A DNA stretch of 64,000 nt from an uncultured virus (IMG/VR IMGVR_UViG_3300003320_000433) (IMGVR_UViG_3300003320_000433), one strand, 5' to 3'. Shown: positions 33,087 through 49,287, numbered from the stretch's first letter. The notes: a model not told the origin generated them from the letters alone. Program-made: numbers and translations.

Positions 33087-35654
33087 TTGGCCACACGGCC
33101 GACCAACGCACAGAGGGCCAAGTACAGGCCTGAACCCAAGCCCACGGACTTGTGCCAGTGCACGATGGCAGACGCTCGCCTCAAGAACTCCAAGGCGAAG
33201 GTCACGCATCAGTTCCCGTATCACGACGCGGACGGCATTCGTCTCTTCAGTCGGTTCCGTTTCGAGATTCCCCCGAACGAGACCCACTCTGACGGCGACA
33301 AGACGTATCGCTATTGCCAGCACTACGACCGGACCAGTCAGCAGCACATCGCTCTGCCGTACGGTCTGCCTCGGCTGCTGGAGGCCGTCCGCACCCAAGC
33401 GCCACGGATTTATCTGGTTGAGGGCGAGAAGGACTGCGAGGCCATCTGGGAGGAGGCCAACGAGTACGCCACGACCACGCATCTGGGCACTCGGTTCCCG
33501 TCTGAGACGGCTGCATACTTCGCCGGATACCAGCGCGAAGTCATCAACGTCATGGACAAGGACCAGTCCGACCCGGAGCACATGGAGCGGCTCAATCACG
33601 AGGATCCTGCCAAGAGGCGCGACCTCCCTGGGGCCGTGTCGGCGCTCCGGCGCTGGCGAGCGCTCCGCAAGGTCGGCGTGACGCGCGTGCCGTTCATGCA
33701 GGTGCTGTTCGGCAAGGACCCGGACGACCTGCTCAAGAAGAGCAAGCGCAAGCGGTCCATCGAGGACATGAAGCGCATCAAGCTCGACCAGATCAAGGCG
33801 TGGGCTCCCAGGGAGGCCGAGAACAGGCGCTCCACGACCTTGCAGCTGTCGGCCTCAGACTTGCCTGAGGGACCGGCGATGCGGCGCTTCTGCGAGGCTC
33901 TGGAGGCCAAGGGGCACCTCCTGGAGAAGATCGGGCCGACCCGGTACAAGACCAACTGCCCGCATCCGGACCACGACGACCACAACCCCAGCTTCGAGTT
34001 CGAGCAGGGCCAGAAGTCCAAGGTGGTTGGGTGGTGCGAGAGCGCGGAATGCACGCGTGGCCCGAAGGACGACCCGACGGCCGGTTGGAAGGCCATCTGC
34101 AAGTATCTGGGGCTTCCGCTGGCAGCGCTGCGAGACGACTGGGATCCGGACAAGCGACGTAGGGCCAAGGCGGACACGCCGGATAAGCCGAGCGACGGCG
34201 ATACGTACTGCCCGGACGCGGCCGACCCGATGGAGGTGGCTCGCCACATCCAGGATGAGTGGGTCAACAAGGAAGACGGATCGGTCGGCTTCATCTACGC
34301 CAACGAGGACACGTGGCTGTACCGGGGCACGCACTGGGAGTCGGTCCTCGACGGCACGATCAGATCCAAGCTGTACCACCGCATGGACAACGAGATGACG
34401 CTCAAGCTCCAGACTGTGGACGGCCAGCCGTCCTGGGTGCCAGTTCGCTGGGCTCCTGCCCCAGCCAAGATCGGCGCTCTGCTGGAGTCTGTGCGAGCCA
34501 TCAACTCGCGAGACAGTCTGCCGGACCCCAACACATGGCAGGGACCGCCCGAGCACGACACCAAGCACGTGGCGATGGTGAACGGTATCTTCGACATCGA
34601 GCGGAAGGAGATGCGGCCGCACACGCCACGCTACTTCAACACGTGGTCGCTCCCGTTCGAGTATGACCCGGATGCGCAGTGTCCGCAGTGGCTGGCGTTC
34701 CTGGACGACGTGTTCGAGAACGACCCGGAGTCCATTCGCACGCTTCGACAGTTCCTGGGCTACTTCATCTCTGGGCGCACCGACATGGAGAAGATCCTGG
34801 CGCTCATCGGTCCAAGCCGCTCAGGCAAGGGCACCATCGCAGAGATGATCGACGCGCTCATGGGTCCCAGCAGCGTCGCGGCGTTCACGCTCAAGTCGCT
34901 GGCTGGTGACTTCGGCCTCCAACCGCTCGTGGGCAAGTCCGTGATGATCGCAGCCGACTCTCGCAGCGCAATGAAGGCCGACGAAATGCAGATCGCCATC
35001 GAGCGGCTGCTCAGCCTGTCGGCCAACGACAAGCTGACCATCAACCGGAAGAACCAGCGACAGATCGACATGAAGCTCGGCGTGCGACCGGTCATCATGT
35101 CGAACGAACTGCCGGCATTCATGGACTCGTCCAACGCCATCAACCAGCGCATGGTCATGCTCAAGATGCGCAAGTCGTACGTAGGTCGCGAGGACCACAC
35201 GCTCAAGGCGCGGCTCATGAAGGAGGTCCAGGGCGTGTTCAACTGGGCCCTAGGCGGCCTGGACGACCTCAACAAGACCGGCAAGCTGCTCCAGCCCGCA
35301 TCTGCCCAGAACTACATCGACACGCTGGACGAGGGTGCGAGCCCGCACGAGCAGTTCCTGGCTCTGCACTGCGAGATCGGCGAGCCGGGCGACGAGGAGT
35401 TCTGGTGCTACCACCCGGAGCTCGTGCAGCTCTGGAAGTCGTACTGCGACCAGAACGACATGAAGCCGGGCAACCCCAACTGGCTTCCACGCAAGCTCGC
35501 TCCGATCGTGACCCGGCTCGGAGGCGAGATGGACAAGGGCTGGCACACCGATGAGAAGGGAAGCCAGTTCCGTACCATCACCGGCATCCGCATCAAGGAG
35601 TCAGCGCCCGGTCCGAAAGAGAAGGGGCTGAGCCTTCAGGTGGACAAGGGATGA
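33087..35654 (+). CDS. DNA primase-helicase (TOPRIM + Zn finger + D5/P4-type SF3 helicase)
   Basis: LVEGEKD, KDPDD, CPHPDHDDHNPS, CPQWLAFL, GPSRSGKGT, MSNELP. Confidence 0.9.
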   Translation: MATRPTNAQRAKYRPEPKPTDLCQCTMADARLKNSKAKVTHQFPYHDADGIRLFSRFRFEIPPNETHSDGDKTYRYCQHYDRTSQQHIALPYGLPRLLEAVRTQAPRIYLVEGEKDCEAIWEEANEYATTTHLGTRFPSETAAYFAGYQREVINVMDKDQSDPEHMERLNHEDPAKRRDLPGAVSALRRWRALRKVGVTRVPFMQVLFGKDPDDLLKKSKRKRSIEDMKRIKLDQIKAWAPREAENRRSTTLQLSASDLPEGPAMRRFCEALEAKGHLLEKIGPTRYKTNCPHPDHDDHNPSFEFEQGQKSKVVGWCESAECTRGPKDDPTAGWKAICKYLGLPLAALRDDWDPDKRRRAKADTPDKPSDGDTYCPDAADPMEVARHIQDEWVNKEDGSVGFIYANEDTWLYRGTHWESVLDGTIRSKLYHRMDNEMTLKLQTVDGQPSWVPVRWAPAPAKIGALLESVRAINSRDSLPDPNTWQGPPEHDTKHVAMVNGIFDIERKEMRPHTPRYFNTWSLPFEYDPDAQCPQWLAFLDDVFENDPESIRTLRQFLGYFISGRTDMEKILALIGPSRSGKGTIAEMIDALMGPSSVAAFTLKSLAGDFGLQPLVGKSVMIAADSRSAMKADEMQIAIERLLSLSANDKLTINRKNQRQIDMKLGVRPVIMSNELPAFMDSSNAINQRMVMLKMRKSYVGREDHTLKARLMKEVQGVFNWALGGLDDLNKTGKLLQPASAQNYIDTLDEGASPHEQFLALHCEIGEPGDEEFWCYHPELVQLWKSYCDQNDMKPGNPNWLPRKLAPIVTRLGGEMDKGWHTDEKGSQFRTITGIRIKESAPGPKEKGLSLQVDKG

Positions 35655-41245: not shown

Positions 41246-41286
41246 TTGCCTTTCCTGTGGATATGGAGCATGATAGTTCCTGTAAG
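41246..41286 (+). promoter_or_regulatory. variant promoter driving ncRNA-A
   Basis: TTGCCT-17-CATGAT-7-GTAAG; same hexamers at 45596. Confidence 0.65.
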
Positions 41287-41647
41287 CGAGAGGGCGGCGA
41301 GCGAAGCTCCCGGGACGGCGACTCCAGCCGACGGTCGAGGCTCCACCCGAAGAACGCGAACACCGAGCAAGGCGGCCAGGCGACAGGTCGGTAGCAGCAA
41401 ATGCAGCGTCGGAGACAGGGCACCGACCCTCCACAAGAAAACGGCAGCGAAGGTAGTAGCGCGCAACTCTCCGGGGACGGACGCGCGGCAGGCTAGGGAG
41501 ACACGGAACCAGCCACCGCACGAGAGAACATCCGGAAGGTTGGCAAGGCGTGAGGGCGGAGCGAACGGGCGGAGCGGCTGGTAGGTCCCACCGACGCCCG
41601 AGTAACACAACAAGACGAAACAGCCCCGTCGGGAGACGCTGGCTGTC
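41282..41647 (+). ncRNA. putative structured ncRNA-A (~366 nt, ending at the hammerhead 1 cut)
   Basis: No RBS-led ORF; purine-rich; paralogous to 45632-46077 with compensatory changes. Confidence 0.6.
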
Positions 41648-41676
41648 GGCCGCTGAACGGCGGTCCTGAGGAGTCT
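41613..41676 (+). ncRNA. type II hammerhead ribozyme 1
   Basis: AGAC-GAAA-CAGCC..GGCTG-TC^(41647)-GGCCGCTG..CGGCGGTC-CTGAGGA-GTCT. Confidence 0.92.
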
Positions 41677-41687
41677 CTGGAGGAACG

Positions 41688-41888
41688 ATGTCCATGCGAA
41701 GCCGCAACACCGTGGCCGGTACGACCGACGCGGGGTTGCCCAAGCGGCGCATCAACGGCTCCAACCCGCCCAACAAGCCGGGCACAACGGCCGAGTCCCG
41801 CTCGACCGTGACGGACGGCTCGGTGCTGGAGGGTCCGGGCGATGTGGTCCAGGGTCCGACCAACGGCCCCGACCAGATCAACCGCTGA
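41688..41888 (+). CDS. hypothetical protein (66 aa)
   Basis: GGAGG RBS directly after hammerhead 1; hairpin follows the stop. Confidence 0.6.
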   Translation: MSMRSRNTVAGTTDAGLPKRRINGSNPPNKPGTTAESRSTVTDGSVLEGPGDVVQGPTNGPDQINR

Positions 41889-41959
41889 AGGAAGGCAGCC
41901 GGGGAGTCCAGCGCTCCCCGGCATGCCGGCAACAACTTTAAGAAACTTGCACTGCACAG

Positions 41960-42001
41960 TAGCCATGCCGGCTGCATGTGGAGTATAGTAGTTACTGTAA
42001 G
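41960..42001 (+). promoter_or_regulatory. conserved phage promoter
   Basis: TAGCCA-18-TATAGT-7-GTAAG. Confidence 0.75.
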
Positions 42002-42034
42002 GCCGACCGAACGAGAGTCCCCAAGGAGGACCCC

Positions 42035-42622
42035 ATGGCCCGCAACGAGAACAAGACCCCGAAGAACTACGAGGCGATCGCCGCCAAGGCTCCGACCCAG
42101 CTGCACCAGGACTTCGCCGAGTGGCTGTACCTGCAGACCGGCGTCCGCGTCGACCTGAAGACGGTCCAGCTGGTGACCGTCCTCCGGATGGACTTCCAGG
42201 CCAGCCCCGAGAACCAGGCCAAGCTGGCCGAGCGCAAGGCCAAGGCTGCGGCAGCCAAGAAGGCGTCGGCCGAGCGCAAGAAGGCCAAGCTGGAGAAGAT
42301 GCTGGCCGAGATCAAGGGCGAGACCAAGACCGAGAAGGCCGAGGAGCCTGAGGTCGAGGCTCCGGCCGAGCCGGGTCCGGTCCAGAAGCTGACCGTGGTC
42401 TACACAGGAACCGGCGAGCCCCAGGTCCACAAGTTCGGCTGCGCCGACCTGAAGAAGATGACCAAGGCCAAGGGCTTCTCCAAGGAGACCGCGCAGGTCC
42501 GCAGCCACACCGAGCTGACCCACTTGATCTACTCCGACATGATCGACTCCGGCGAGTCGAGCCTGGAGGACAACTACATGGCCTACGAGGCCAAGCCCTG
42601 CTGCCCCGCGCTGGACAGCTGA
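42035..42622 (+). CDS. KTVQL-family protein, paralog 1
   Basis: PTQLHQDFAEWL..TG..DLKTVQLVTVLRMDFQASPENQA. Confidence 0.8.
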   Translation: MARNENKTPKNYEAIAAKAPTQLHQDFAEWLYLQTGVRVDLKTVQLVTVLRMDFQASPENQAKLAERKAKAAAAKKASAERKKAKLEKMLAEIKGETKTEKAEEPEVEAPAEPGPVQKLTVVYTGTGEPQVHKFGCADLKKMTKAKGFSKETAQVRSHTELTHLIYSDMIDSGESSLEDNYMAYEAKPCCPALDS

Positions 42623-42628
42623 CCAACA

Positions 42629-42702
42629 GGACGAAACGGCCCGGACGCCTCAACCAGAGGCGGACGGGCCGTCTGCGGCTGAGTGGCCGTACTGACGAGT
42701 CC
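42629..42702 (+). ncRNA. type II hammerhead ribozyme 2
   Basis: GGAC-GAAA-CGGCCCG..CGGGCCG-TC^(42673)-TGCGGC..GCCGTA-CTGACGA-GTCC. Confidence 0.93.
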
Positions 42703-42711
42703 CCCAGGAGG

Positions 42712-43035
42712 ATGGTCATGGGTCTGGTTCCGCTGCCGAGCGACGACGAGGTCGTCAAGGCGTGGCGCAATCACGACAAGAACAACTCGCGGACTGCCAA
42801 GTACTTCGGCGTCAACGAGAGCACGATCCGCAAGGTCGTGCAGCGCGCAACTGGCCGGACGCCTCGGCCCTACAAGAGGCTCCCGCTGGGCGGTGCAGCG
42901 CTCTACGGGGCGTTCCTCAAGGAAGGCGGTGACTGCCACTCGGTAGGCCGCCTAGCGCGCTCCTACGGCGTCAAGCCGCAGTCTGTACGTGCGGCGCTCC
43001 GCCGCTATCTCGATCGGGTCGACCCGGTCAACTGA
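42712..43035 (+). CDS. helix-turn-helix DNA-binding protein
   Basis: NSRTAKYFGVNESTIRKVV and VGRLARSYGVKPQSVRAAL (two HTH-like motifs). Confidence 0.7.
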   Translation: MVMGLVPLPSDDEVVKAWRNHDKNNSRTAKYFGVNESTIRKVVQRATGRTPRPYKRLPLGGAALYGAFLKEGGDCHSVGRLARSYGVKPQSVRAALRRYLDRVDPVN

Positions 43036-43055
43036 GTCCCCAAGGAGGACACCCC

Positions 43056-43274
43056 ATGGACAACGACCGCAAGGCTGTGTACGACTACATCATGAACGCG
43101 GACGGCCTCATCAAGATGTCGACGTTCGCGATCTTCGACGGTGTGGTCAACAAGGACTACGTCGTCATCCACAGCGCACCGCCGCGTGTCGTGCGCGAGC
43201 TCGTCGGCTTCTGCAAGATGGTGTCGATGAGCGAGCAGGGCCTGCTGATCCCGCTGACCAAGAAGGAGAGCTAG
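43056..43274 (+). CDS. hypothetical protein
   Basis: GAGTCCCCAAGGAGG leader. Confidence 0.7.
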   Translation: MDNDRKAVYDYIMNADGLIKMSTFAIFDGVVNKDYVVIHSAPPRVVRELVGFCKMVSMSEQGLLIPLTKKES

Positions 43275-43438
43275 TGACACGGGGAACACCGATCCCGCAG
43301 GATCCGAGCGGAGCCCACGAGGCCGCTCCTCCGCCGGAGGCCGACCCGGTCGTCCAGGCGGAGGCACGGGGGCACAGCCCGGCGGATCAGGTCCAGCCGC
43401 CGGACGCGGACGCCATCGACCTCTACGGAGGCATCTGA
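43274..43438 (+). CDS. small hypothetical protein
   Basis: AAGGAG RBS; TAGTG coupling. Confidence 0.5.
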   Translation: MTRGTPIPQDPSGAHEAAPPPEADPVVQAEARGHSPADQVQPPDADAIDLYGGI

Positions 43439-43439
43439 C

Positions 43440-43520
43440 ATGTTCATCCTGGAGATCCTCGCCGAGACGATCGGCGAGTTCATCGGCGCTCTGTTCGGGC
43501 GCAGAAGGAGGCGCAAGTGA
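43440..43520 (+). CDS. 26-aa amphipathic peptide
   Basis: MFILEILAETIGEFIGALFGRRRRRK; GGAGG RBS. Confidence 0.5.
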   Translation: MFILEILAETIGEFIGALFGRRRRRK

Positions 43521-43693
43521 GCGGCGAGACACCGCGTGGCGTGACCGGGCCGGGATACGACGAGCACCAGGCCACGCCGCACAAGGACCACAACCACTCA
43601 GACCACCAGGTTCAGCCGGACAACCAGAACACCGGAACTGCCGGCACGACACATGGCGAGGGTGGACGCCAGCACACGGAGCACGCGCCATGA
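43517..43693 (+). CDS. small His-rich hypothetical protein
   Basis: AAGGAGG RBS; GTGA overlap. Confidence 0.5.
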   Translation: MSGETPRGVTGPGYDEHQATPHKDHNHSDHQVQPDNQNTGTAGTTHGEGGRQHTEHAP

Positions 43694-43833
43694 GTGCGCC
43701 CCAGGTCGTAGAGGTCGACGTCCCCGAGTGGGCCGTCGGCCTCCCTGGCGCACTGGAGCTCTATGCGGCAATCAAGGCTGAGTTCTCGTTCATGAGCGAC
43801 GACTGCATCTGGGAGCTCGTGCGCGACTGGTGA
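43690..43833 (+). CDS. small hypothetical protein
   Basis: ATGA overlap; stops 3 nt before hammerhead 3. Confidence 0.55.
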   Translation: MSAPQVVEVDVPEWAVGLPGALELYAAIKAEFSFMSDDCIWELVRDW

Positions 43834-43836
43834 CAA

Positions 43837-43889
43837 GGACGAAACCTCCGGAAGGAGGTCGGGTGCTGGATGGCACTCCTGATGAGTCC
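43837..43889 (+). ncRNA. type II hammerhead ribozyme 3
   Basis: GGAC-GAAA-CCTCC-GGAA-GGAGG-TC^(43860)-GGGTGC..GCACTC-CTGATGA-GTCC. Confidence 0.95.
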
Positions 43890-43903
43890 CCAAGGAGGAC
43901 ATC

Positions 43904-44137
43904 GTGTCCAGTAGCAGGATCAAGGCAGGGCTGGAGACCCTTGCGCCGTTCCAGGGCACACACATCCGGACCGACGACCGGTCCGAGTTCGTCAGGTTCC
44001 CCAACATGCTCATGGCTGCACAGTTCGTGAAGTACTTCCAGCTTGAGGAAGTCGCCTTCGCCTGTGTAGCGAGCGAGCACGCCGACAGGCGTAGGTTCGA
44101 CGTCCGTGTGGTCGTTGAGCTCGTACGTCGGCGCTGA
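43904..44137 (+). CDS. hypothetical protein
   Basis: CCAAGGAGG RBS fused to hammerhead 3. Confidence 0.65.
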   Translation: MSSSRIKAGLETLAPFQGTHIRTDDRSEFVRFPNMLMAAQFVKYFQLEEVAFACVASEHADRRRFDVRVVVELVRRR

Positions 44138-44156
44138 GGCCCGAAGGAGGCCCAAC

Positions 44157-44552
44157 ATGTACGACCGCAAGCATCGCATCCAGGTGGCGTTCGACGCCGA
44201 GACGGTCGGTGTCCCGCTGGACCCCGAGACGTTCGAGGACCACCTGGAATTCGCAACCGAGTACCAGCTGGCGATGTACCGGCTCGGGTCCAAGTCGAAG
44301 CGCGACGAGACCCGCCCGCACGTCCGCCACGGTCTGGCGTCGCGCTACTCTCTCATGGAGCTCCGCGCGCTGTTTCTGTTCGCCAACGCCGAGCACAAGG
44401 CCGAGATCGCCAAAGGCGGACGACTCAACGAGCTGGAGCGCGGAGAGCTCTGGGTGCAGATCGCCGACGACGGGCTGATCGAGTTCCCCGCCCGTGGCAC
44501 GGCTCCGGTTGCCACGGACAAGTCCATCACGATCAAGTACGACAACAACTAG
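44157..44552 (+). CDS. hypothetical protein
   Basis: AAGGAGG RBS. Confidence 0.7.
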   Translation: MYDRKHRIQVAFDAETVGVPLDPETFEDHLEFATEYQLAMYRLGSKSKRDETRPHVRHGLASRYSLMELRALFLFANAEHKAEIAKGGRLNELERGELWVQIADDGLIEFPARGTAPVATDKSITIKYDNN

Positions 44553-44582
44553 CATCACCAGTCCCCAAGGAGGACAAGCACA

Positions 44583-44930
44583 ATGGCTAAGCGCATCCAG
44601 GTTCGCCCCACGGTCGTCGAGGTGCTGTCGCACAACGTCGGCAAGGTCGTCACGATCAGCGACATCATGTCGCGTCTGCCCAAGGGAGCGCAGCCCGCTT
44701 CCGTCCGCAATGCCGTGCGCTGGCTCATGGACGAGGGCGGCATGTGCATCAGCGTCATCTCTGCCGGCAACAGCTGGCGTCTGGAGTCGCTGGACAACTC
44801 CGGCTTCAGCACCCGCGCCAACCCGGATGCCGGCAAGTCGCTGGTGTTCGAGCTCGTGGGCGAGAAGGAGGACGGCACCCGCGTTGTGCGCGACCCGGAC
44901 GGGAAGCTCTACGACGTAACGCCTCTCTAG
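44583..44930 (+). CDS. putative winged-helix protein
   Basis: GTCCCCAAGGAGG leader; VTISDIMSRL...SVRNAVRWL. Confidence 0.65.
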   Translation: MAKRIQVRPTVVEVLSHNVGKVVTISDIMSRLPKGAQPASVRNAVRWLMDEGGMCISVISAGNSWRLESLDNSGFSTRANPDAGKSLVFELVGEKEDGTRVVRDPDGKLYDVTPL

Positions 44931-45025
44931 CGGCCCTACGCGGCCACGTAACGAACGAACGCGCCCCGGTCAGGCACTCGCCCCGACCGGGGCGTTCCGA
45001 GCCCTTACACGAGCGAAGGACAGGC

Positions 45026-45427
45026 ATGAAGATCAGGAACGTGGCGATGGCCGGGGCAGTGCTGCTCGCGGTCGCTGCATGCGACGCCAATGCACCGGCC
45101 CAGAAGGCGGTCAGCGGCGACCGGGACGACGTCAAGAAGGTGGACGCCGTCAAGGAGAAGAGCCACAAGGAGCTGGCCAGCAGCACGACCTGCACCCGCA
45201 GAGTTGCCGGCAAGTGCAAGGCGACGAAGACGACCAAGACCTGGAAGAAGGTCGTCGACCAGGCCGCCAAGCCCGCGCTGTACTGCGTCGAGCTGGACAA
45301 CGTCAACGGCTCCGCCAAGGACGACGACGTGTGGTACACCACCACCAGCGCTGTCTACTGGAAGGCCGTGGCCAAGCACGAGGGCGATCGCATGAAGTTC
45401 ATGCCGCTCCACGGCGGCTGCTGGTAG
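45026..45427 (+). CDS. predicted lipoprotein
   Basis: MKIRNVAMAGAVLLAVAA-C signal with lipobox. Confidence 0.7.
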   Translation: MKIRNVAMAGAVLLAVAACDANAPAQKAVSGDRDDVKKVDAVKEKSHKELASSTTCTRRVAGKCKATKTTKTWKKVVDQAAKPALYCVELDNVNGSAKDDDVWYTTTSAVYWKAVAKHEGDRMKFMPLHGGCW

Positions 45428-45595
45428 GCCGCAGGCCGGGTGAATCGCCGTTGACGATGTGATTCGCCCGATTCGACCTGATACGCGTCGCACTCATGCC
45501 GGCCTGCGGAAACGTAGAAAGTCGAAAAAAGTTCCAAGAAGTTTGCACATGCCCCTACCTGCGCATTCACCGAGAATGACCAGGTAGGGGCTGAG

Positions 45596-45636
45596 TTGCC
45601 TCCGGCCCAGATCTGGCGCATGATTCTTCCTGTAAG
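45596..45636 (+). promoter_or_regulatory. variant promoter driving ncRNA-B
   Basis: TTGCCT-17-CATGAT-7-GTAAG. Confidence 0.65.
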
Positions 45637-46077
45637 CGAACGAGGGCAGGGAACGAAGCTCCCCAACTGGCCGGTCTGGCCGAGGGTAGAGGTTCCGCCC
45701 GAAGACCGCGAACCCGAGCAGGACAGCCAAGAGAGACGGCTGAGATCGCGCCCCGGAGACGGGCCGCTGACTCTAGACAGGAACCGGACTCCCCAAAACC
45801 GGTAGTTGCGAGCGAAGCGACTGGACTGGCCGAGGACGGGCAGCCGACTCCCACTGCGGGCGTCGGAAGCGCACACATCCGGTTGGTACTGAAAGCTGCT
45901 AGCGAGCGACGGACTCCACCTCTTCAAGCCTGGGTCAAGTGAGACACCCCGCTCGGGGCACCTCTGGCCAGGAAGTCGAAAGGTGGACGGTCTGCCGGCA
46001 ACCGCAACCCTCGAAGCGAGGAGATGCCGGCACGAACAACAAGGACGAAACGAGCCCGCTGGGAAGCGCTGCTCGTA
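45632..46077 (+). ncRNA. putative structured ncRNA-B (~446 nt, ending at the hammerhead 4 cut)
   Basis: No RBS-led ORF; paralogous to 41282-41647. Confidence 0.6.
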
Positions 46078-46106
46078 CGCCGGTGGATGCCGGTGCTGAG
46101 GAGTCC
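46043..46106 (+). ncRNA. type II hammerhead ribozyme 4
   Basis: GGAC-GAAA-CGAGC..GCTCG-TA^(46077)-CGCCGGT..GCCGGTG-CTGAGGA-GTCC. Confidence 0.92.
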
Positions 46107-46119
46107 CCAAGGAGGAACC

Positions 46120-46599
46120 ATGTCCGAGAACACCACCGCCAAGAAGACCTTCGCCGAGCGCGCCGCAGCGGAGCCCACCGAGCTCCACAAGCAGTTCGCG
46201 GCGTGGATCGAGGCGCAGACCGGGATCAAGCCCGACCTCAAGACCGTCCAGCTGGTCACGACCCTGCGGATGGACTTCCAGAAGTCGGACGAGAACCAGG
46301 CCGCGCTGAAGGAGCGCAAGGTCGCCGCCGAGAAGAAGGCGGCGGAGGCGCTGGCCCGGAAGCGGGCCAAGCTGGAGGCGGAGCTCGCCAAGCTCAACGG
46401 GAGCACGGCGAGCGAGGACAAGGCCGACGAGGCGAAGCCCGAGGAGCCCGCTGAGGCCCCGAAGGACGCCTCCGAGCCCACCGCTCAGGCGGAGGGCGAG
46501 AACGCCCCGGAGACGGCCACGGAGGCCGCCGCTGAGGCCAAGACGGACGCGCCCAAGCCGCGTGCCCGCCGCACTCGCCGGACCACCGGCACCAAGTAA
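46120..46599 (+). CDS. KTVQL-family protein, paralog 2
   Basis: PTELHKQFAAWI..TG..DLKTVQLVTTLRMDFQKSDENQA. Confidence 0.8.
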   Translation: MSENTTAKKTFAERAAAEPTELHKQFAAWIEAQTGIKPDLKTVQLVTTLRMDFQKSDENQAALKERKVAAEKKAAEALARKRAKLEAELAKLNGSTASEDKADEAKPEEPAEAPKDASEPTAQAEGENAPETATEAAAEAKTDAPKPRARRTRRTTGTK

Positions 46600-46661
46600 C
46601 ACCCCTGACGCCCCCGGTCGAGTGGCAGCCGCAGAGCACCTCGACCGGGGTGCATGGGTAA

Positions 46662-46725
46662 GGACGAAACCTAGGGCGGCTCGCCGCCCGATGGTCCGGC
46701 GCTGAACGGCGCTGCTGAGGAGTCC
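46662..46725 (+). ncRNA. type II hammerhead ribozyme 5
   Basis: GGAC-GAAA-CC..GGGCGGC/GCCGCCC..GG-TC^(46696)-CGGCGCTG..CGGCGCTG-CTGAGGA-GTCC. Confidence 0.88.
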
Positions 46726-46738
46726 CCAAGGAGGAACC

Positions 46739-47227
46739 ATGCTGGAAGCGTTCGCCCTGTACACCTGGTACGAAGAGGGCGAGGGCCGCGAGTTCGTGGC
46801 GGCGTTCGTGACGAGCCCCACGACCCCCGACCCGCACGGCCGTGCTCACGAGGTGATGCGGCGGATGTCGGCCGACGGAACGCGGGGTGACTGCTTCTCG
46901 GTCGAGAAGCTGGACATCAACATGAGCAACAAGGAGCTCGGCCTCAAGCCGACGATCGACGAGATCGAGACGGACGACTTCCTGGACGCTGTGTACCGCG
47001 AGCTCCTGGAGCATGGCGTCGTACAGCTTCCGCTCTGGATGAACCAGGCCTGGGTCAAGCACGAGATCAAGATGCGGTACAACGACTCCGTGGCACTGAC
47101 CGGGCGTCGGCTGGAGCTCGTGCCCAGGACCGCGCTGACCCGCTCAACGGACGCGGCCGAGTCTGAGGCGTATGATCGGGACGCAGCAGCCGAGGACGCC
47201 GGATTCGTAGAGAGCACCGACGCATGA
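46739..47227 (+). CDS. hypothetical protein
   Basis: CCAAGGAGG RBS fused to hammerhead 5. Confidence 0.75.
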   Translation: MLEAFALYTWYEEGEGREFVAAFVTSPTTPDPHGRAHEVMRRMSADGTRGDCFSVEKLDINMSNKELGLKPTIDEIETDDFLDAVYRELLEHGVVQLPLWMNQAWVKHEIKMRYNDSVALTGRRLELVPRTALTRSTDAAESEAYDRDAAAEDAGFVESTDA

Positions 47228-47319
47228 ACAAGCCTCAGCGCCCCGACCATTCGGGGCTGTGGTTCTGGTTATTAACCATCGCCCTGCTCGCGGCGTACAT
47301 TAAGTCGCAGCGGGGCTGA
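47224..47319 (+). CDS. 31-aa membrane peptide
   Basis: ATGA overlap; GLWFWLLTIALLAAYI. Confidence 0.5.
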   Translation: MNKPQRPDHSGLWFWLLTIALLAAYIKSQRG

Positions 47320-47331
47320 CTCTCCACCCCA

Positions 47332-47405
47332 GGTCGAAACGCTCGTGGCGCGACAGCCGGTCGTGCGCGAGCGTCCGCCGGTATGGTGCCGGTGCTGAAG
47401 AGACC
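47332..47405 (+). ncRNA. type II hammerhead ribozyme 6
   Basis: GGTC-GAAA-CGCTCG..CGAGCG-TC^(47375)-CGCCGGTA..TGCCGGTG-CTGAAGA-GACC. Confidence 0.92.
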
Positions 47406-47421
47406 GTGGAGGTCTGTGCAC

Positions 47422-47706
47422 ATGAAGTTGGACAAGCTGATCGAGGACCTGCTGGCCATCCAGGAGGAACTCCAGGAAGCTGGTGTGGACACGTCTGACA
47501 CGGACGTGCTTGCCGGCATCCAGCCCACGTATCCGCTCACCTCGGTCGTGGTCGGCGTTGTCTCGGGTGAGACGCTGGCTGACGAGTCCGAGAGCGAGCT
47601 CCGAGAGCCGGAGCGCAAGGCCGTCTGGGTCGCCACAGACCAGGTCGGCTCGTGGTCCAACTACAACCCCTACGCCCCGAAGGCGCTCTGGGAGGTGGCC
47701 AGGTGA
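47422..47706 (+). CDS. hypothetical acidic protein
   Basis: GGAGG RBS after hammerhead 6; MKLDKLIEDL...NPYAPKALWE. Confidence 0.75.
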   Translation: MKLDKLIEDLLAIQEELQEAGVDTSDTDVLAGIQPTYPLTSVVVGVVSGETLADESESELREPERKAVWVATDQVGSWSNYNPYAPKALWEVAR

Positions 47707-48020
47707 AACCGGAGATCAGCGTCACCCCGGCTCAGAAGGGGTCGAACTGCTACCTGTGCCACGAGACGGCTGCTGTGTGCTGCCTCCCGCGAGACCTGGA
47801 CGATCCTGACATCACGCCGGAGGCCAACGAGTGGTACGACATGGGCCTGCTCTCGTGCTGGGGCTGCATCCGCAAGATCCTCACCATGCTCATGTCCGAC
47901 CCCAAGCTCCCCGAGCGTGAGGCGGACGCGCTGGAGGAGGATGTGAGAGCGCTCCGACCCGAGCGTCTCGACGAGCTGGAACACAAGATCGACACGGCCA
48001 TCCAGGAACTGGAGAAGTGA
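47703..48020 (+). CDS. hypothetical Cys-motif protein
   Basis: GTGA overlap; CYLC and CWGC. Confidence 0.65.
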   Translation: MKPEISVTPAQKGSNCYLCHETAAVCCLPRDLDDPDITPEANEWYDMGLLSCWGCIRKILTMLMSDPKLPEREADALEEDVRALRPERLDELEHKIDTAIQELEK

Positions 48021-48175
48021 TGGCGAGCTTCACTAAGAACTGGTGGGCTAAGCATGACATGGACCGTGACGGCAAGGGCTGCTTCTTCATCGTCATGGTG
48101 ATAGCAGGAGCGCTCCTGTTCGTCGGCGTCGGACTCGGCATCATCGCCACGGTCGCAGTCGCCAAGCTGTTCTAA
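48020..48175 (+). CDS. small membrane protein
   Basis: TGATG coupling; long hydrophobic C-terminus. Confidence 0.55.
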   Translation: MASFTKNWWAKHDMDRDGKGCFFIVMVIAGALLFVGVGLGIIATVAVAKLF

Positions 48176-48186
48176 TCCTCAGCCTA

Positions 48187-48240
48187 GGACGAAACCTCCG
48201 TGAGGAGGTCCGCCGGTAAGGTACCGGTGCTGACGAGTCC
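48187..48240 (+). ncRNA. type II hammerhead ribozyme 7
   Basis: GGAC-GAAA-CCTCC-GTGA-GGAGG-TC^(48210)-CGCCGGTA..TACCGGTG-CTGACGA-GTCC. Confidence 0.95.
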
Positions 48241-48255
48241 CGAGGAGATTCGCGC

Positions 48256-49287
48256 ATGTCCGAGAGCATCACGAAGAGCAACCCCAAGCTGAAGACCATC
48301 CAGGCCCTGCTCGACAAGGCCAACCGGACCGAGAACCCGGCTGAGCGCGAGACCTTCCTGGAGAAGGCCGAGCAGCTCATGCAGAAGTACGCGATCGACG
48401 CGGCCATGCTGGCCGAGGCGAAGAGGATCGCGGGCGGAAAGCAGGAGATGCCGGAGAAGCGGATGACCACCTTCATGGCGGCCAACGACAAACTCGGCAA
48501 CCAGTGGTACAACCTGATCATCGCCGTGGCAGAGCACTACGACTGCCAGTTCTTCGGCTGGACCTCGGGCAATGGTTGGCTGGTCGGCTTCCCGTCGAAC
48601 ATGGACCTGGTCGAGATGGTCTACACGTCGCTGCAGCTGCAGGCTCTGCAGAAGCTCGACCCCAAGCCCGACAAGCGCAAGTCGTTCGACGAGAACGTCT
48701 ACATCCTGCACGAGGCTGGCATCAAGTGGCGGAACATCGCGCACCTGATGAACAAGGCGTATCACGAGGAGAAGGAGCTGGGTCGCCTGGAGCGTCTCGG
48801 CCTCCCCGAGGACACCGACACCTCCTGGTCCTTCCGCATCCCCGGTGCGGACAGCAGCTGGCAGGAGGTCCCCTGGGAGGTGGACGCTCAGGGCAAGGGC
48901 AAGAAGGACGGTGGCCGTCTGATCCGGGCGTGCAAGCGCTGGTGCTCCGAGATCGGAGAGCCGTACCGGGCCGTGCAGTCGCCGATCACCTTCCAGCGTT
49001 CCTACGCGCAGGGCTTCCTCAACGAGGTTCGCTACCGATTCGCCGCGCTGCGCAAGTATCGCGACGAGCAGGTCAAGGCGACCACGGGTGCTGAGCTGGT
49101 CCTGTTCGACCGCAACAAGCTCGTGCAGGACATGATGGACGAGCTCAAGCGGCTGATGGGGCACAAGGACGGCAAGGGTTACAGGCAGCGGATCGTGGGC
49201 GAGGCGTACGACCGTGGCCGACAGGACGGCCGCACGGCCGATATCGGGCAGGACCGCGTTGGTGGTCGCCGCAAGGAGATCTCATGA
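48256..49287 (+). CDS. DUF2786-like protein
   Basis: TIQALLDKA...ERETFLEKAEQLMQKYAID; FQRSYAQGF. Confidence 0.75.
   Translation: MSESITKSNPKLKTIQALLDKANRTENPAERETFLEKAEQLMQKYAIDAAMLAEAKRIAGGKQEMPEKRMTTFMAANDKLGNQWYNLIIAVAEHYDCQFFGWTSGNGWLVGFPSNMDLVEMVYTSLQLQALQKLDPKPDKRKSFDENVYILHEAGIKWRNIAHLMNKAYHEEKELGRLERLGLPEDTDTSWSFRIPGADSSWQEVPWEVDAQGKGKKDGGRLIRACKRWCSEIGEPYRAVQSPITFQRSYAQGFLNEVRYRFAALRKYRDEQVKATTGAELVLFDRNKLVQDMMDELKRLMGHKDGKGYRQRIVGEAYDRGRQDGRTADIGQDRVGGRRKEIS

Follow-up and report, generated by a model that had tools for sequence, protein, structure and literature searches.

Type II hammerhead ribozymes, the class represented by Rfam family RF02276, are described from phage DNA, where they cluster among small genes whose function is unknown and share the orientation of these genes (Perreault 2011, PMC3088659). 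In the consensus published there, stem II counts 2-3 bp, stem I is longer than in the copies described below, and loop I forms a pseudoknot of at least 4 pairs with the 3' tail. Clustered prophage hammerheads of that study cut transcripts of ~2 kb in vitro, leading to the proposal that they process phage polycistronic RNA. In Desulfovibrio vulgaris, three type II hammerheads found near phage-like genes also cleave, with activity in vivo (PMC8782182).

The tertiary contact of types I and III is captured by the UNmYN / RNnA motif, defined with a reverse Hoogsteen U:A pair that forms a triple with the penultimate U; the C:A opposition of the Schistosoma hammerhead is accepted as well (Dufour 2008, PMC2632901). 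In both solved classes the AU Hoogsteen pair joins the A that ends the stem II tetraloop to the U beside position 1.6 (Chi 2008, PMC2553840). The motif was tallied for types I, II and III by Perreault 2011 (Figure S5, PMC3088659). For type II, the account of De la Pena 2017 (PMC6155905) states that no structure exists and that tertiary contacts are 'usually Watson-Crick'. The ribozyme HHmin-AL4:U1.7 (O'Rourke, Estell and Scott 2015, as presented in PMC11875169) combines a 4-bp stem II with an A at L2.4 and an unpaired U at 1.7, and carries no other tertiary element; it is an engineered, trans-acting molecule whose stem II is closed by a GNRA tetraloop.

The window (the whole stretch of 64,000 nucleotides of uncultured virus DNA analysed here) contains seven type II hammerheads, all on the + strand and with an open stem II, within 6.6 kb of a lytic-type Streptomyces phage genome, between early genes (Table 1). 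The literature searched yielded no report of hammerheads in Streptomyces phages or actinobacteriophages. A covariance model run with filters off over the whole 64 kb gives seven matches at 37.8-67 bits, the runner-up scoring 12 bits. One pattern scan of the window returned three matches, including a chance match on the - strand (33243-33264), and a second one returned five against 0.28 expected.

Table 1. Hammerheads (HH1 to HH7) and accompanying features in the window; positions are counted from its first nucleotide.
Feature	Position	Strand	Flank A	Cut	U1.7	Bits	Stem II	Loop I	Core	Setting and remarks
Promoter-like repeat (..GATAGT..CTGTAAG)	41260-41289; 41975-42004; 45610-45639	+								repeated in all six relatives
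Leader 1	41280-41611	+								ORF-less; ends at HH1
HH1	41612-41676	+	41612	41647^41648 (GUC)	41654	49.8	AGAC/GUCU	UGAACG	CUGAGGA	3' end of ~330-nt leader; 11 nt to ATG at 41688
HH2	42628-42702	+	42628	42673^42674	42680	48.1	GGAC/GUCC	UGAGUG	CUGACGA	upstream of HTH-protein gene 42712-43035
HH3	43836-43889	+	43836	43860^43861	43867	67		UGGAUG	CUGAUGA	upstream of GTG start at 43904
Leader 3	45630-46041	+								paralogue of leader 1; ends at HH4
HH4	46042-46106	+	46042	46077^46078 (GUA)	46084	53.2		UGGAUG	CUGAGGA	3' end of ~410-nt leader; upstream of ATG at 46120
HH5	46661-46725	+	46661	46696^46697	46703	48.4		UGAACG	CUGAGGA	upstream of ATG at 46739
HH6	47331-47405	+	47331	47375^47376	47382	37.8	GGUC/GACC	UAUGGUG (heptaloop)	CUGAAGA	5' flank CCCC; upstream of ATG at 47422; RF02276 32.2 bits, below GA 37
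HH7	48186-48240	+	48186	48210^48211	48217	65.9		UAAGGUA (heptaloop)	CUGACGA	5' flank CCU; upstream of DUF2786 gene 48256-49287; RF02276 31.9 bits

The core (C3 U4 G5 A6 N7 G8 A9, G12 A13 A14 and A15.1-U16.1) is complete in all seven copies, and residue H17 is never G, being C in six of them and A in one. Each copy follows the strand order 11.x, GAAA, stem III, cut, stem I, CUGANGA, 10.x, the permutation in which loops close stems I and III and stem II stays open, and in each the three-way junction is both the minimum-energy and the centroid structure. In an alignment of 63 sequences, 12 of the 15 pairs show double-sided changes and the covariation score is 0.743 versus 0.150 in shuffles; sliding the partner columns makes pairing collapse from 100% to 27-41%, the 100% holding by construction, as the rows came from a parser that demands pairing. 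The sequence-only reading had taken these elements as selected rather than decayed, a view that the intact cores, the junction folds and the compensatory stem changes support. The copies look like working ribozymes of a known kind. Core position 4 is a C in the HH4 orthologues of five relatives.

None of the seven copies is matched by RF02276 at its gathering threshold of 37 bits; in E-value mode the family detects HH6 and HH7 (Table 1) together with two other copies at 22.1 and 20.6 bits, three being unlisted. The RF02276 consensus is that of the pseudoknot class, and the scores of the window copies fall below its gathering threshold. Unlike that published consensus, the window copies have a 4-bp stem II and a 6-bp stem I followed by a U, and HH1-5 lack such a pseudoknot. 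When a pairing of loop I with the 3' tail was sought by eye, no complement of the loop was found in HH1, HH2 and HH5, and in HH3 and HH4 the loop UGG could pair with the tail CCA through at most 3 bp, consuming U1.7.

It had been claimed from the sequence that the seventh nucleotide after the cut is U in every copy and that an A immediately precedes a 4-bp stem II. Re-parsing of the window copies finds the U, the A and the 4-bp stem II in seven of seven each; the heptamers given at the time (GGCCGCU, UGCGGCU, GGGUGCU, CGCCGGU, CGGCGCU, CGCCGGU, CGCCGGU) are exact, and the span given, 41612-48217, has the A of HH1 and the U1.7 of HH7 as its two ends. Given the composition of the region (A 0.214, T 0.138), chance occurrence has p = 2e-5 for the seven A and p = 9e-7 for the seven U, values that overstate independence because the window copies are paralogues. 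The geometry then proposed agrees with the positions of both bases: the A immediately precedes 11.4 on its 5' side, the place taken by L2.4, the last loop II base, when a tetraloop caps a 4-bp stem II, and the U adjoins 1.6, as in solved structures (Chi 2008, PMC2553840) and as in the account of O'Rourke 2015 (PMC11875169). Stem II has no closed loop and no A-bearing internal loop, so the A comes from the 5' flank, of which it is the last base, in line with the earlier claim that the open flank supplies it.

The motif of the earlier claim is incomplete, as it also comprises a penultimate loop pyrimidine and a C:A opposition. Loop I is UGRAYG in HH1-5 and UANGGUR in HH6-7, both of which fit UNmYN with m = 3 or 4; its penultimate base is a pyrimidine in all seven (C, U, U, U, C, U, U) and in 41 of 43 unique regex-parsed copies (7 from the window and 36 from relatives). 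The base opposite the flank A is C in six window copies and G in one, the purine of the RNnA half thus being absent from six of the seven. In common with the type I/III motif (PMC2632901, PMC2553840), the window copies have the U as first loop base next to 1.6, the penultimate pyrimidine and the A directly 5' of 11.4. Unlike that motif, they have no loop 2: the A is the last single-stranded residue of the 5' flank, and the residue facing it opens the 3' flank leading into the ribosome-binding site. HHmin-AL4:U1.7 shares with them the 4-bp stem II, the A and the U, in an engineered trans format whereas the window copies are natural, act in cis and leave stem II open.

Conservation in homologues had been put forward as a check of the two bases. 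Both are present in 49 of 49 matches of a model whose seed was picked for having the A; these are the seven of the window and 42 in the Streptomyces phages Dryad, phiRKBJ001, Wentworth, Gibson, Lizz and Yara, which are ~77% identical to the window across the hammerhead region. A broader scan of IMG/VR fixed only the core and GAC/GUC of stem II, that is three of its four pairs, and gave at least 154 pattern matches in at least 137 loci; 131 could be parsed, of these 125 were unique, and the filter retained 122. Among the IMG/VR matches listed that have a 4-bp stem II (n = 100), the A is found in 94 and U1.7 in 93: both bases occur in 93, the A only in 1, the U only in 0 and neither in 6 (Fisher p = 5.9e-9). 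By eye, a loop I / 3' tail pseudoknot is present in at least two of these seven exceptions, L134 and L103. When stem II has 3 bp (n = 11 among the matches listed), both bases are present in one copy. At control positions of the flank no base exceeds 37% among the matches listed. Of the IMG/VR loci, 23 have no parsed copy; by eye ~20 are chance matches and three resemble imperfect hammerheads, of which two have both A and U while L095 has U1.7 and a C replacing the A. RF02276 gives at best 33.6 bits on copies in 20 IMG/VR loci, below the gathering value of 37.

Could the two bases be unselected leftovers from the recent duplication of a single ancestral unit? Stem I is identical in HH6 and HH7, whose likeness over 33 nt reaches 88%, and the stems III of HH3 and HH7 are 92% alike, as such a history would leave. 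Yet the stems diverged with compensatory changes around a fixed U and A, and the same bases recur in unrelated contigs whose GC content ranges from 0.32 to 0.70, with 75 different stem I hexamers among the A-and-U IMG/VR copies listed, which contradicts this explanation and makes it highly improbable. The joint presence or absence of U1.7 and A is a direct observation that supports a contact; it is not true covariation, because the two bases are essentially invariant, and it is equally compatible with Hoogsteen and Watson-Crick pairing.

U1.7 could also be a seventh stem I pair (U:G or U:A) that closes a small loop without tertiary contact, the flank A being kept to block a fifth stem II pair, as part of a stop codon or as local sequence. 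Minimum-energy and centroid folds do pair U1.7 with G2.7 or A2.7 in all seven window copies, and across 144 copies, IMG/VR matches listed included, position 2.7 is G in 106, A in 21, U in 15 and C in 2, so that 127 could pair and 17 would be U:U or U:C. Positions 1.7 and 2.7 are, however, never C:G, G:C or A:U, whereas all neighbouring pairs switch, with 4-6 pair types at each of 1.1-1.6: U1.7 behaves unlike a helix base. A trans-acting minimal hammerhead with its U7 held in a U:G pair has a lower turnover than one with unpaired U7, in a source where a section heading reads 'U7 ... is not essential' (PMC11875169). As for the A, a G in its place would pair with the opposite C, but 'not G' would suffice to limit stem II, and all 49 model matches and 94 of the 100 IMG/VR matches listed have A there; the base opposite is A in 68 of these 100. 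The A lies within a TAA, TGA or TAG triplet in 51 of 101 IMG/VR copies listed, so part of its conservation could be coding-related, versus 6 of 43 in the window and relatives, where 37 As are outside stop triplets. The joint loss of U and A remains unexplained by a stem I pair, which we consider quite unlikely.

A third possibility is that loop I and the 5' flank form a very small Watson-Crick pseudoknot in place of a Hoogsteen pair, like the classical type II pseudoknot but shorter and on the opposite side of stem II. Watson-Crick pseudoknots make up most type II tertiary contacts in the accounts of Perreault 2011 (PMC3088659) and PMC6155905, although the published one uses the 3' tail rather than the 5' flank. 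In the heptaloop class (HH6, HH7 and their relatives) the loop GG accompanies a flank CC at -8 to -6 in 15 of 15 cases versus 20 of 129 other copies (IMG/VR matches listed included), and the loop AGG of HH7 can pair with the flank CCU. The CC occurs nevertheless at two spacings (CCA and CCUA), all 15 heptaloop cases belong to one phage group and perhaps descend from few ancestral copies, and neither HH1-5 nor the IMG/VR pentaloop copies listed have a flank complement beyond the A. The pseudoknot is an improbable explanation; an additional GG:CC contact is possible in HH6 and HH7.

We favour the reading that the seven copies are type II hammerhead ribozymes, predicted to be active, that dock through a U1.7:A contact and process an early transcript, with a probability of roughly 0.7. 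Stems I and II would dock as in natural hammerheads of types I and III, through a reverse (trans) Hoogsteen pair between U1.7 and the A, the latter being stacked on the far end of the 4-bp stem II as the last unpaired base of the 5' flank. The penultimate pyrimidine of loop I probably completes a U:A:Y triple; among the IMG/VR copies listed it is found in 29 of 34 hexaloops and 25 of 62 pentaloops. Docking would let the core cut at cellular Mg2+. Motifs, conservation, joint occurrence of the two bases and gene layout are observed; pairing geometry, cleavage rate, cleavage in vivo and the effect on expression are predictions drawn from the sequences.

The observed gene layout gives a setting for such cleavage. 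All seven hammerheads are co-oriented with the genes and placed at a fixed spacing, each preceding a shared ribosome-binding module, with stem II ending 10-17 nt upstream of the start codon. The promoter-like repeats are candidate starts of the hammerhead-cut transcripts. Leader 1 is 92.7-98.5% identical in 8 of 9 phages and has no annotated feature. Each cut would detach the RNA lying upstream, be it a long leader or the preceding cistron, leaving a downstream message headed by a stem I hairpin with a 5'-OH, ~25-30 nt before the Shine-Dalgarno sequence, and an upstream piece that ends in a stem III hairpin with a 2',3'-cyclic phosphate. A long early transcript would become separate messages, and cutting of the polycistronic early transcript into single messages is the likely function, by analogy with the prophage arrays (Perreault 2011, Figure 3) and those of Desulfovibrio vulgaris (PMC8782182), which likewise place several ribozymes per transcript between short genes of unknown function. 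Unlike those arrays, the window has seven ribozymes in 6.6 kb at a fixed distance from starts, two of them closing long conserved leaders.

The form that combines U1.7 and a flank A with a stem I of 6 bp and a stem II of 4 bp accounts for 102 of the 122 IMG/VR copies listed and scores below the Rfam threshold. That it is the main subclass of phage type II hammerheads, as yet undescribed, with cleavage gated by the flank and leaders released, is a tentative and rather doubtful proposal. In it, the docking A follows the upstream stop codon by 2-15 nt or terminates a highly conserved 330-410-nt leader. Since docking would rely on an unpaired nucleotide belonging to the upstream RNA instead of a loop, whatever occupies the flank could gate cleavage. 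If the form is indeed such a subclass, this gating role could fall to a ribosome that is terminating, to the folded leader or to some bound factor, and HH1 and HH4 would free the conserved leaders, each as a stable RNA of its own with the stem III hairpin as its cap.

Seven hammerhead motifs (HH1 to HH7), identified by two pattern scans and a covariance model, lie on the + strand between 41.6 and 48.2 kb of the window. Of the three matches of the first pattern scan, two are true and one, on the - strand, is due to chance; the second scan gave five matches against 0.28 expected. Covariance model R1, built from an alignment (A1) of 63 short hammerhead copies and run with filters off over the entire window, returns exactly these seven with 37.8 to 67 bits, the next match having 12 bits. 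Each copy is composed in order of the 3' strand of stem II, GAAA, the stem III hairpin, GUC or GUA, the cut, the stem I hairpin, CUGANGA and the 5' strand of stem II, an arrangement that is the type II permutation. The hammerhead core is complete in all seven and the three-way junction is both the minimum-energy and the centroid fold of each. Stem II has invariably 4 bp (AGAC/GUCU once, GGAC/GUCC five times and GGUC/GACC once). Stem III is long in HH2, HH6 and copies of relatives, and such long forms often have CAGCC(A)G within the loop or close to it, an example being GCAGCCAG in phages Dryad, Gibson, Lizz and Yara. Rfam gives no match in the whole window at gathering scores, and in E-value mode four copies match RF02276 with 20.6 to 32.2 bits against a threshold of 37. 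The gathering score is also unreached in 20 IMG/VR loci with 29 pattern matches (best 33.6 bits). Annotation by Rfam overlooks these ribozymes; R1 detects them cleanly.

The sequence-only reading listed the heptamers that follow the cut, all with U at position 7 (U1.7, the first base of loop I), and reported that the base directly 5' of the 4-bp stem II is always A (the flank A). The heptamers are identical to those listed, with U1.7 in 7/7 copies and the flank A in 7/7, and the observation is confirmed over the whole span from the flank A of HH1 (41612) to U1.7 of HH7 (48217). By base composition the chance of seven A is p = 2e-5 and that of seven U p = 9e-7, figures that concern paralogous copies, so that the real test of both bases is their conservation elsewhere. 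The loops I of HH1 to HH7 are UGAACG, UGAGUG, UGGAUG, UGGAUG, UGAACG, UAUGGUG and UAAGGUA, each made of U, three or four bases, a pyrimidine and one final base. Six copies have C opposite the flank A, and one has G.

The region shares about 77% identity with Streptomyces phages phiRKBJ001, Dryad, Wentworth, Gibson, Rooney, Lizz and others; six related GenBank records carry no ribozyme annotation. R1 finds 42 copies in the corresponding regions of six relatives. Together with those of the window, 49/49 copies keep both the flank A and U1.7, while stem I varies around them (position 1.1 and position 1.6 are each C, G or U). The HH4 orthologues of five relatives read CCGANGA, with C for U at core position 4; HH4 of the window is canonical. 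Everything else is kept in these orthologues, including U1.7 and the flank A, and the change would be either tolerated by the ribozyme core or attenuating.

Unrelated phages were reached by one IMG/VR pattern scan, with the core and GAC/GUC of stem II as its sole fixed elements. It gave at least 137 stretches with at least 154 pattern matches; among the 154 matches listed, 131 are parsed as hammerheads, 125 are unique and 122 passed the filter. The 100 listed copies with a 4-bp stem II have the flank A in 94 cases, U1.7 in 93 and both in 93, leaving one with A alone, none with U alone and six with neither (Fisher p = 5.9e-9). Both bases are found in only 1/11 listed copies with a 3-bp stem II. 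No base exceeds 37% at control positions of the flank among the matches listed, whose copies with A and U have 75 distinct stem I hexamers and whose loci range in GC from 0.32 to 0.70. At least two of the seven exceptions among listed 4-bp copies (loci L134 and L103) have a clear pseudoknot, seen by eye, between loop I and the 3' tail. Inspection by eye of the 23 listed loci without a parsed copy points to about 20 chance matches and three imperfect hammerheads, two with A and U and one (L095) with U1.7 and C in place of A.

Position 1.7 could be merely the seventh base pair of stem I, and folding programs do pair U1.7 with 2.7. Pairs 1.1 to 1.6 occur each as four to six pair types, whereas 1.7 is always U in the class with A and U, facing G in 106, A in 21, U in 15 and C in 2 of 144 copies (IMG/VR matches listed included). 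Position 1.7 lacks the covariation that a helix position would show, which argues that it is not simply a seventh base pair. The flank A could alternatively be kept as part of an overlapping stop codon. It lies inside a stop-like triplet in 51/101 IMG/VR copies among the matches listed; in this phage group such a triplet is present in only 6/43, which excludes a stop codon as the origin of the A there.

The two bases correspond to a known docking contact. Chi et al. 2008 (PMC2553840) describe one tertiary pair common to both solved hammerhead classes, a Hoogsteen pair that joins the A at the end of the stem II loop to the U adjoining 1.6. Dufour et al. 2008 (PMC2632901) assign loop 1 the motif UNmYN, with m = 3 or 4, and loop 2 the motif RNnA; their mutants show a reverse Hoogsteen pair of U and A, which the penultimate U joins in a triple, and a C:A opposition is accepted, as in the Schistosoma hammerhead. 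PMC11875169 describes fast minimal hammerheads by O'Rourke et al. 2015 in which stem II has 4 bp, L2.4 is A and U1.7 is unpaired; its own results show that the U is not strictly essential and that a U:G pair there is mildly harmful. Unlike the published docking motif, the window copies have no loop II. The flank A lies directly 5' of position 11.4, where L2.4 would sit, so the geometric argument of the sequence-only reading holds. Its wider interpretation, ribozymes under selection that would be fast, with the A supplied by the open 5' flank, is supported as far as sequence goes: at this level the seven are real, selected ribozymes that bear the complete docking signature known from other hammerheads, here with stem II open.

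Docking of type II hammerheads is mostly ascribed to pseudoknots in the literature searched. The type II consensus of Perreault et al. 2011 (PMC3088659) includes a pseudoknot formed with the 3' tail, and their Figure S5 counts the interaction 'U Nm Y N - R Nm A' in each of types I, II and III. According to the review of De la Pena 2017 (PMC6155905), no structure exists for type II, whose contacts are usually of Watson-Crick type. Our search for type II hammerheads together with Hoogsteen contacts gave nothing beyond Perreault 2011, and that for hammerheads in Streptomyces phages or actinobacteriophages found no report. In contrast to the pseudoknot picture, the tertiary pair common to all solved hammerheads would be the rule in a large phage type II group that lacks loop II. 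The copies with a 7-nt loop I (UANGGUR), which include HH6 and HH7, associate loop GG with CC at flank positions -8 to -6 in 15/15 cases against 20/129 for other copies. This may add a pseudoknot of 2-3 bp; the cases are not independent because all come from one phage group.

Every copy has the orientation of the genes, with 10-17 nt from the end of stem II to the start codon, and in 5/7 stem II runs directly into a shared ribosome-binding module, GAGUCCCCAAGGAGGA. The module also precedes three genes without hammerhead, and CUGA lies just ahead of its copy near 43030. Such sites may derive from ribozymes since lost, or the module may serve translation in common. The window has three copies of a conserved phage promoter-like motif, ..GGTAG..GGAGTATAGTTCTTACTGTAAG, and a stretch of phage Yara has up to six. 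Behind two of the three window repeats come leaders without ORFs, one of about 330 nt that ends at HH1 and one of about 410 nt that ends at HH4. Leader 1 has 92.7-98.5% identity in 8/9 related phages, against about 77% for the whole region, and carries no annotated feature. Neither leader has an Rfam match, thermodynamic structure gives no signal (z = -0.25 and -0.13), and the leader consensus fold of nine sequences is not convincing (12/54 pairs doubly changed; covariation contributes just -0.65 kcal/mol). Hammerhead cleavage may free the leaders as RNAs.

The only sequencing runs found have small shares (0.06): one run whose kind is unclear, and four runs of root metatranscriptomes that belong to one study. 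Four of these five runs consist of assembled contigs of relatives, which do not show ends, strand or level; some bridge HH1 and some end nearby. In run X1 two of them terminate at 41645, which, as a contig end, does not mark an RNA end. Contig depth, which is not expression level in these assembled contigs of relatives, is highest in the leader bins.

Coordinates of hammerheads and associated features (window positions unless a stretch of a relative, L001 to L006, is named)
Feature	Position	Remark
HH1	41612-41676	+ strand
HH2	42628-42702	+ strand
HH3	43836-43889	+ strand
HH4	46042-46106	+ strand
HH5	46661-46725	+ strand
HH6	47331-47405	+ strand
HH7	48186-48240	+ strand
Long stem III, HH2	42636-42672	
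Long stem III, HH6	47339-47374	
Flank CC with loop GG, HH6	47326-47331 with 47385-47386	
Flank CC with loop GG, HH7	48182-48184 with 48213-48215	
HH4 orthologue, core C4	L001:6187-6262	
HH4 orthologue, core C4	L002:6280-6355	
HH4 orthologue, core C4	L003:6626-6701	
HH4 orthologue, core C4	L004:5914-5989	
HH4 orthologue, core C4	L005:12197-12272	
Promoter-like repeat	41260-41289	recurs in all relatives
Promoter-like repeat	41975-42004	recurs in all relatives
Promoter-like repeat	45610-45639	recurs in all relatives
Promoter-like motif, Yara	L006: 229, 591, 1092, 2024, 2804, 7877	
Leader 1	41280-41611	ORF-less, to HH1
Other leader	45630-46041	ORF-less, to HH4
Module, gene without hammerhead	42015-42034	
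Module, gene without hammerhead	43034-43053	
Module, gene without hammerhead	44559-44578	
PHROG 20596 gene	42035-42622	
PHROG 20596 gene	46120-46599	preceded by HH4

The genes nearby are small. Among 14 neighbouring ORFs compared with Pfam and PHROGs most have no assigned function, and the matches include one HTH protein, DUF2786/DUF7168 and DUF6011; these comparisons give no link to RNA processing. Small genes, mostly without known function, are the usual neighbours of phage hammerheads (PMC6155905). Two paralogous genes of PHROG 20596, whose function is unknown, share 71% DNA identity over 139 nt and are each the first after a promoter, only one having a hammerhead ahead of it. By analogy with the role that Perreault et al. 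(PMC3088659) proposed for prophage arrays, the window hammerheads most likely cut a long transcript into single messages. Each downstream message would then begin with a 5'-OH hairpin, and the stem III hairpin would form the end of each upstream piece; we infer that cutting would affect message stability or translation. Message processing of this kind by hammerheads would resemble synthetic ribozyme insulators. Type II hammerheads beside phage-like genes of Desulfovibrio vulgaris cleave in vivo (PMC8782182). The copies mark probable cut sites of early transcripts just ahead of the ribosome-binding module, and their layout offers a simple test of ribozyme-based message processing in a laboratory-growable Streptomyces phage.
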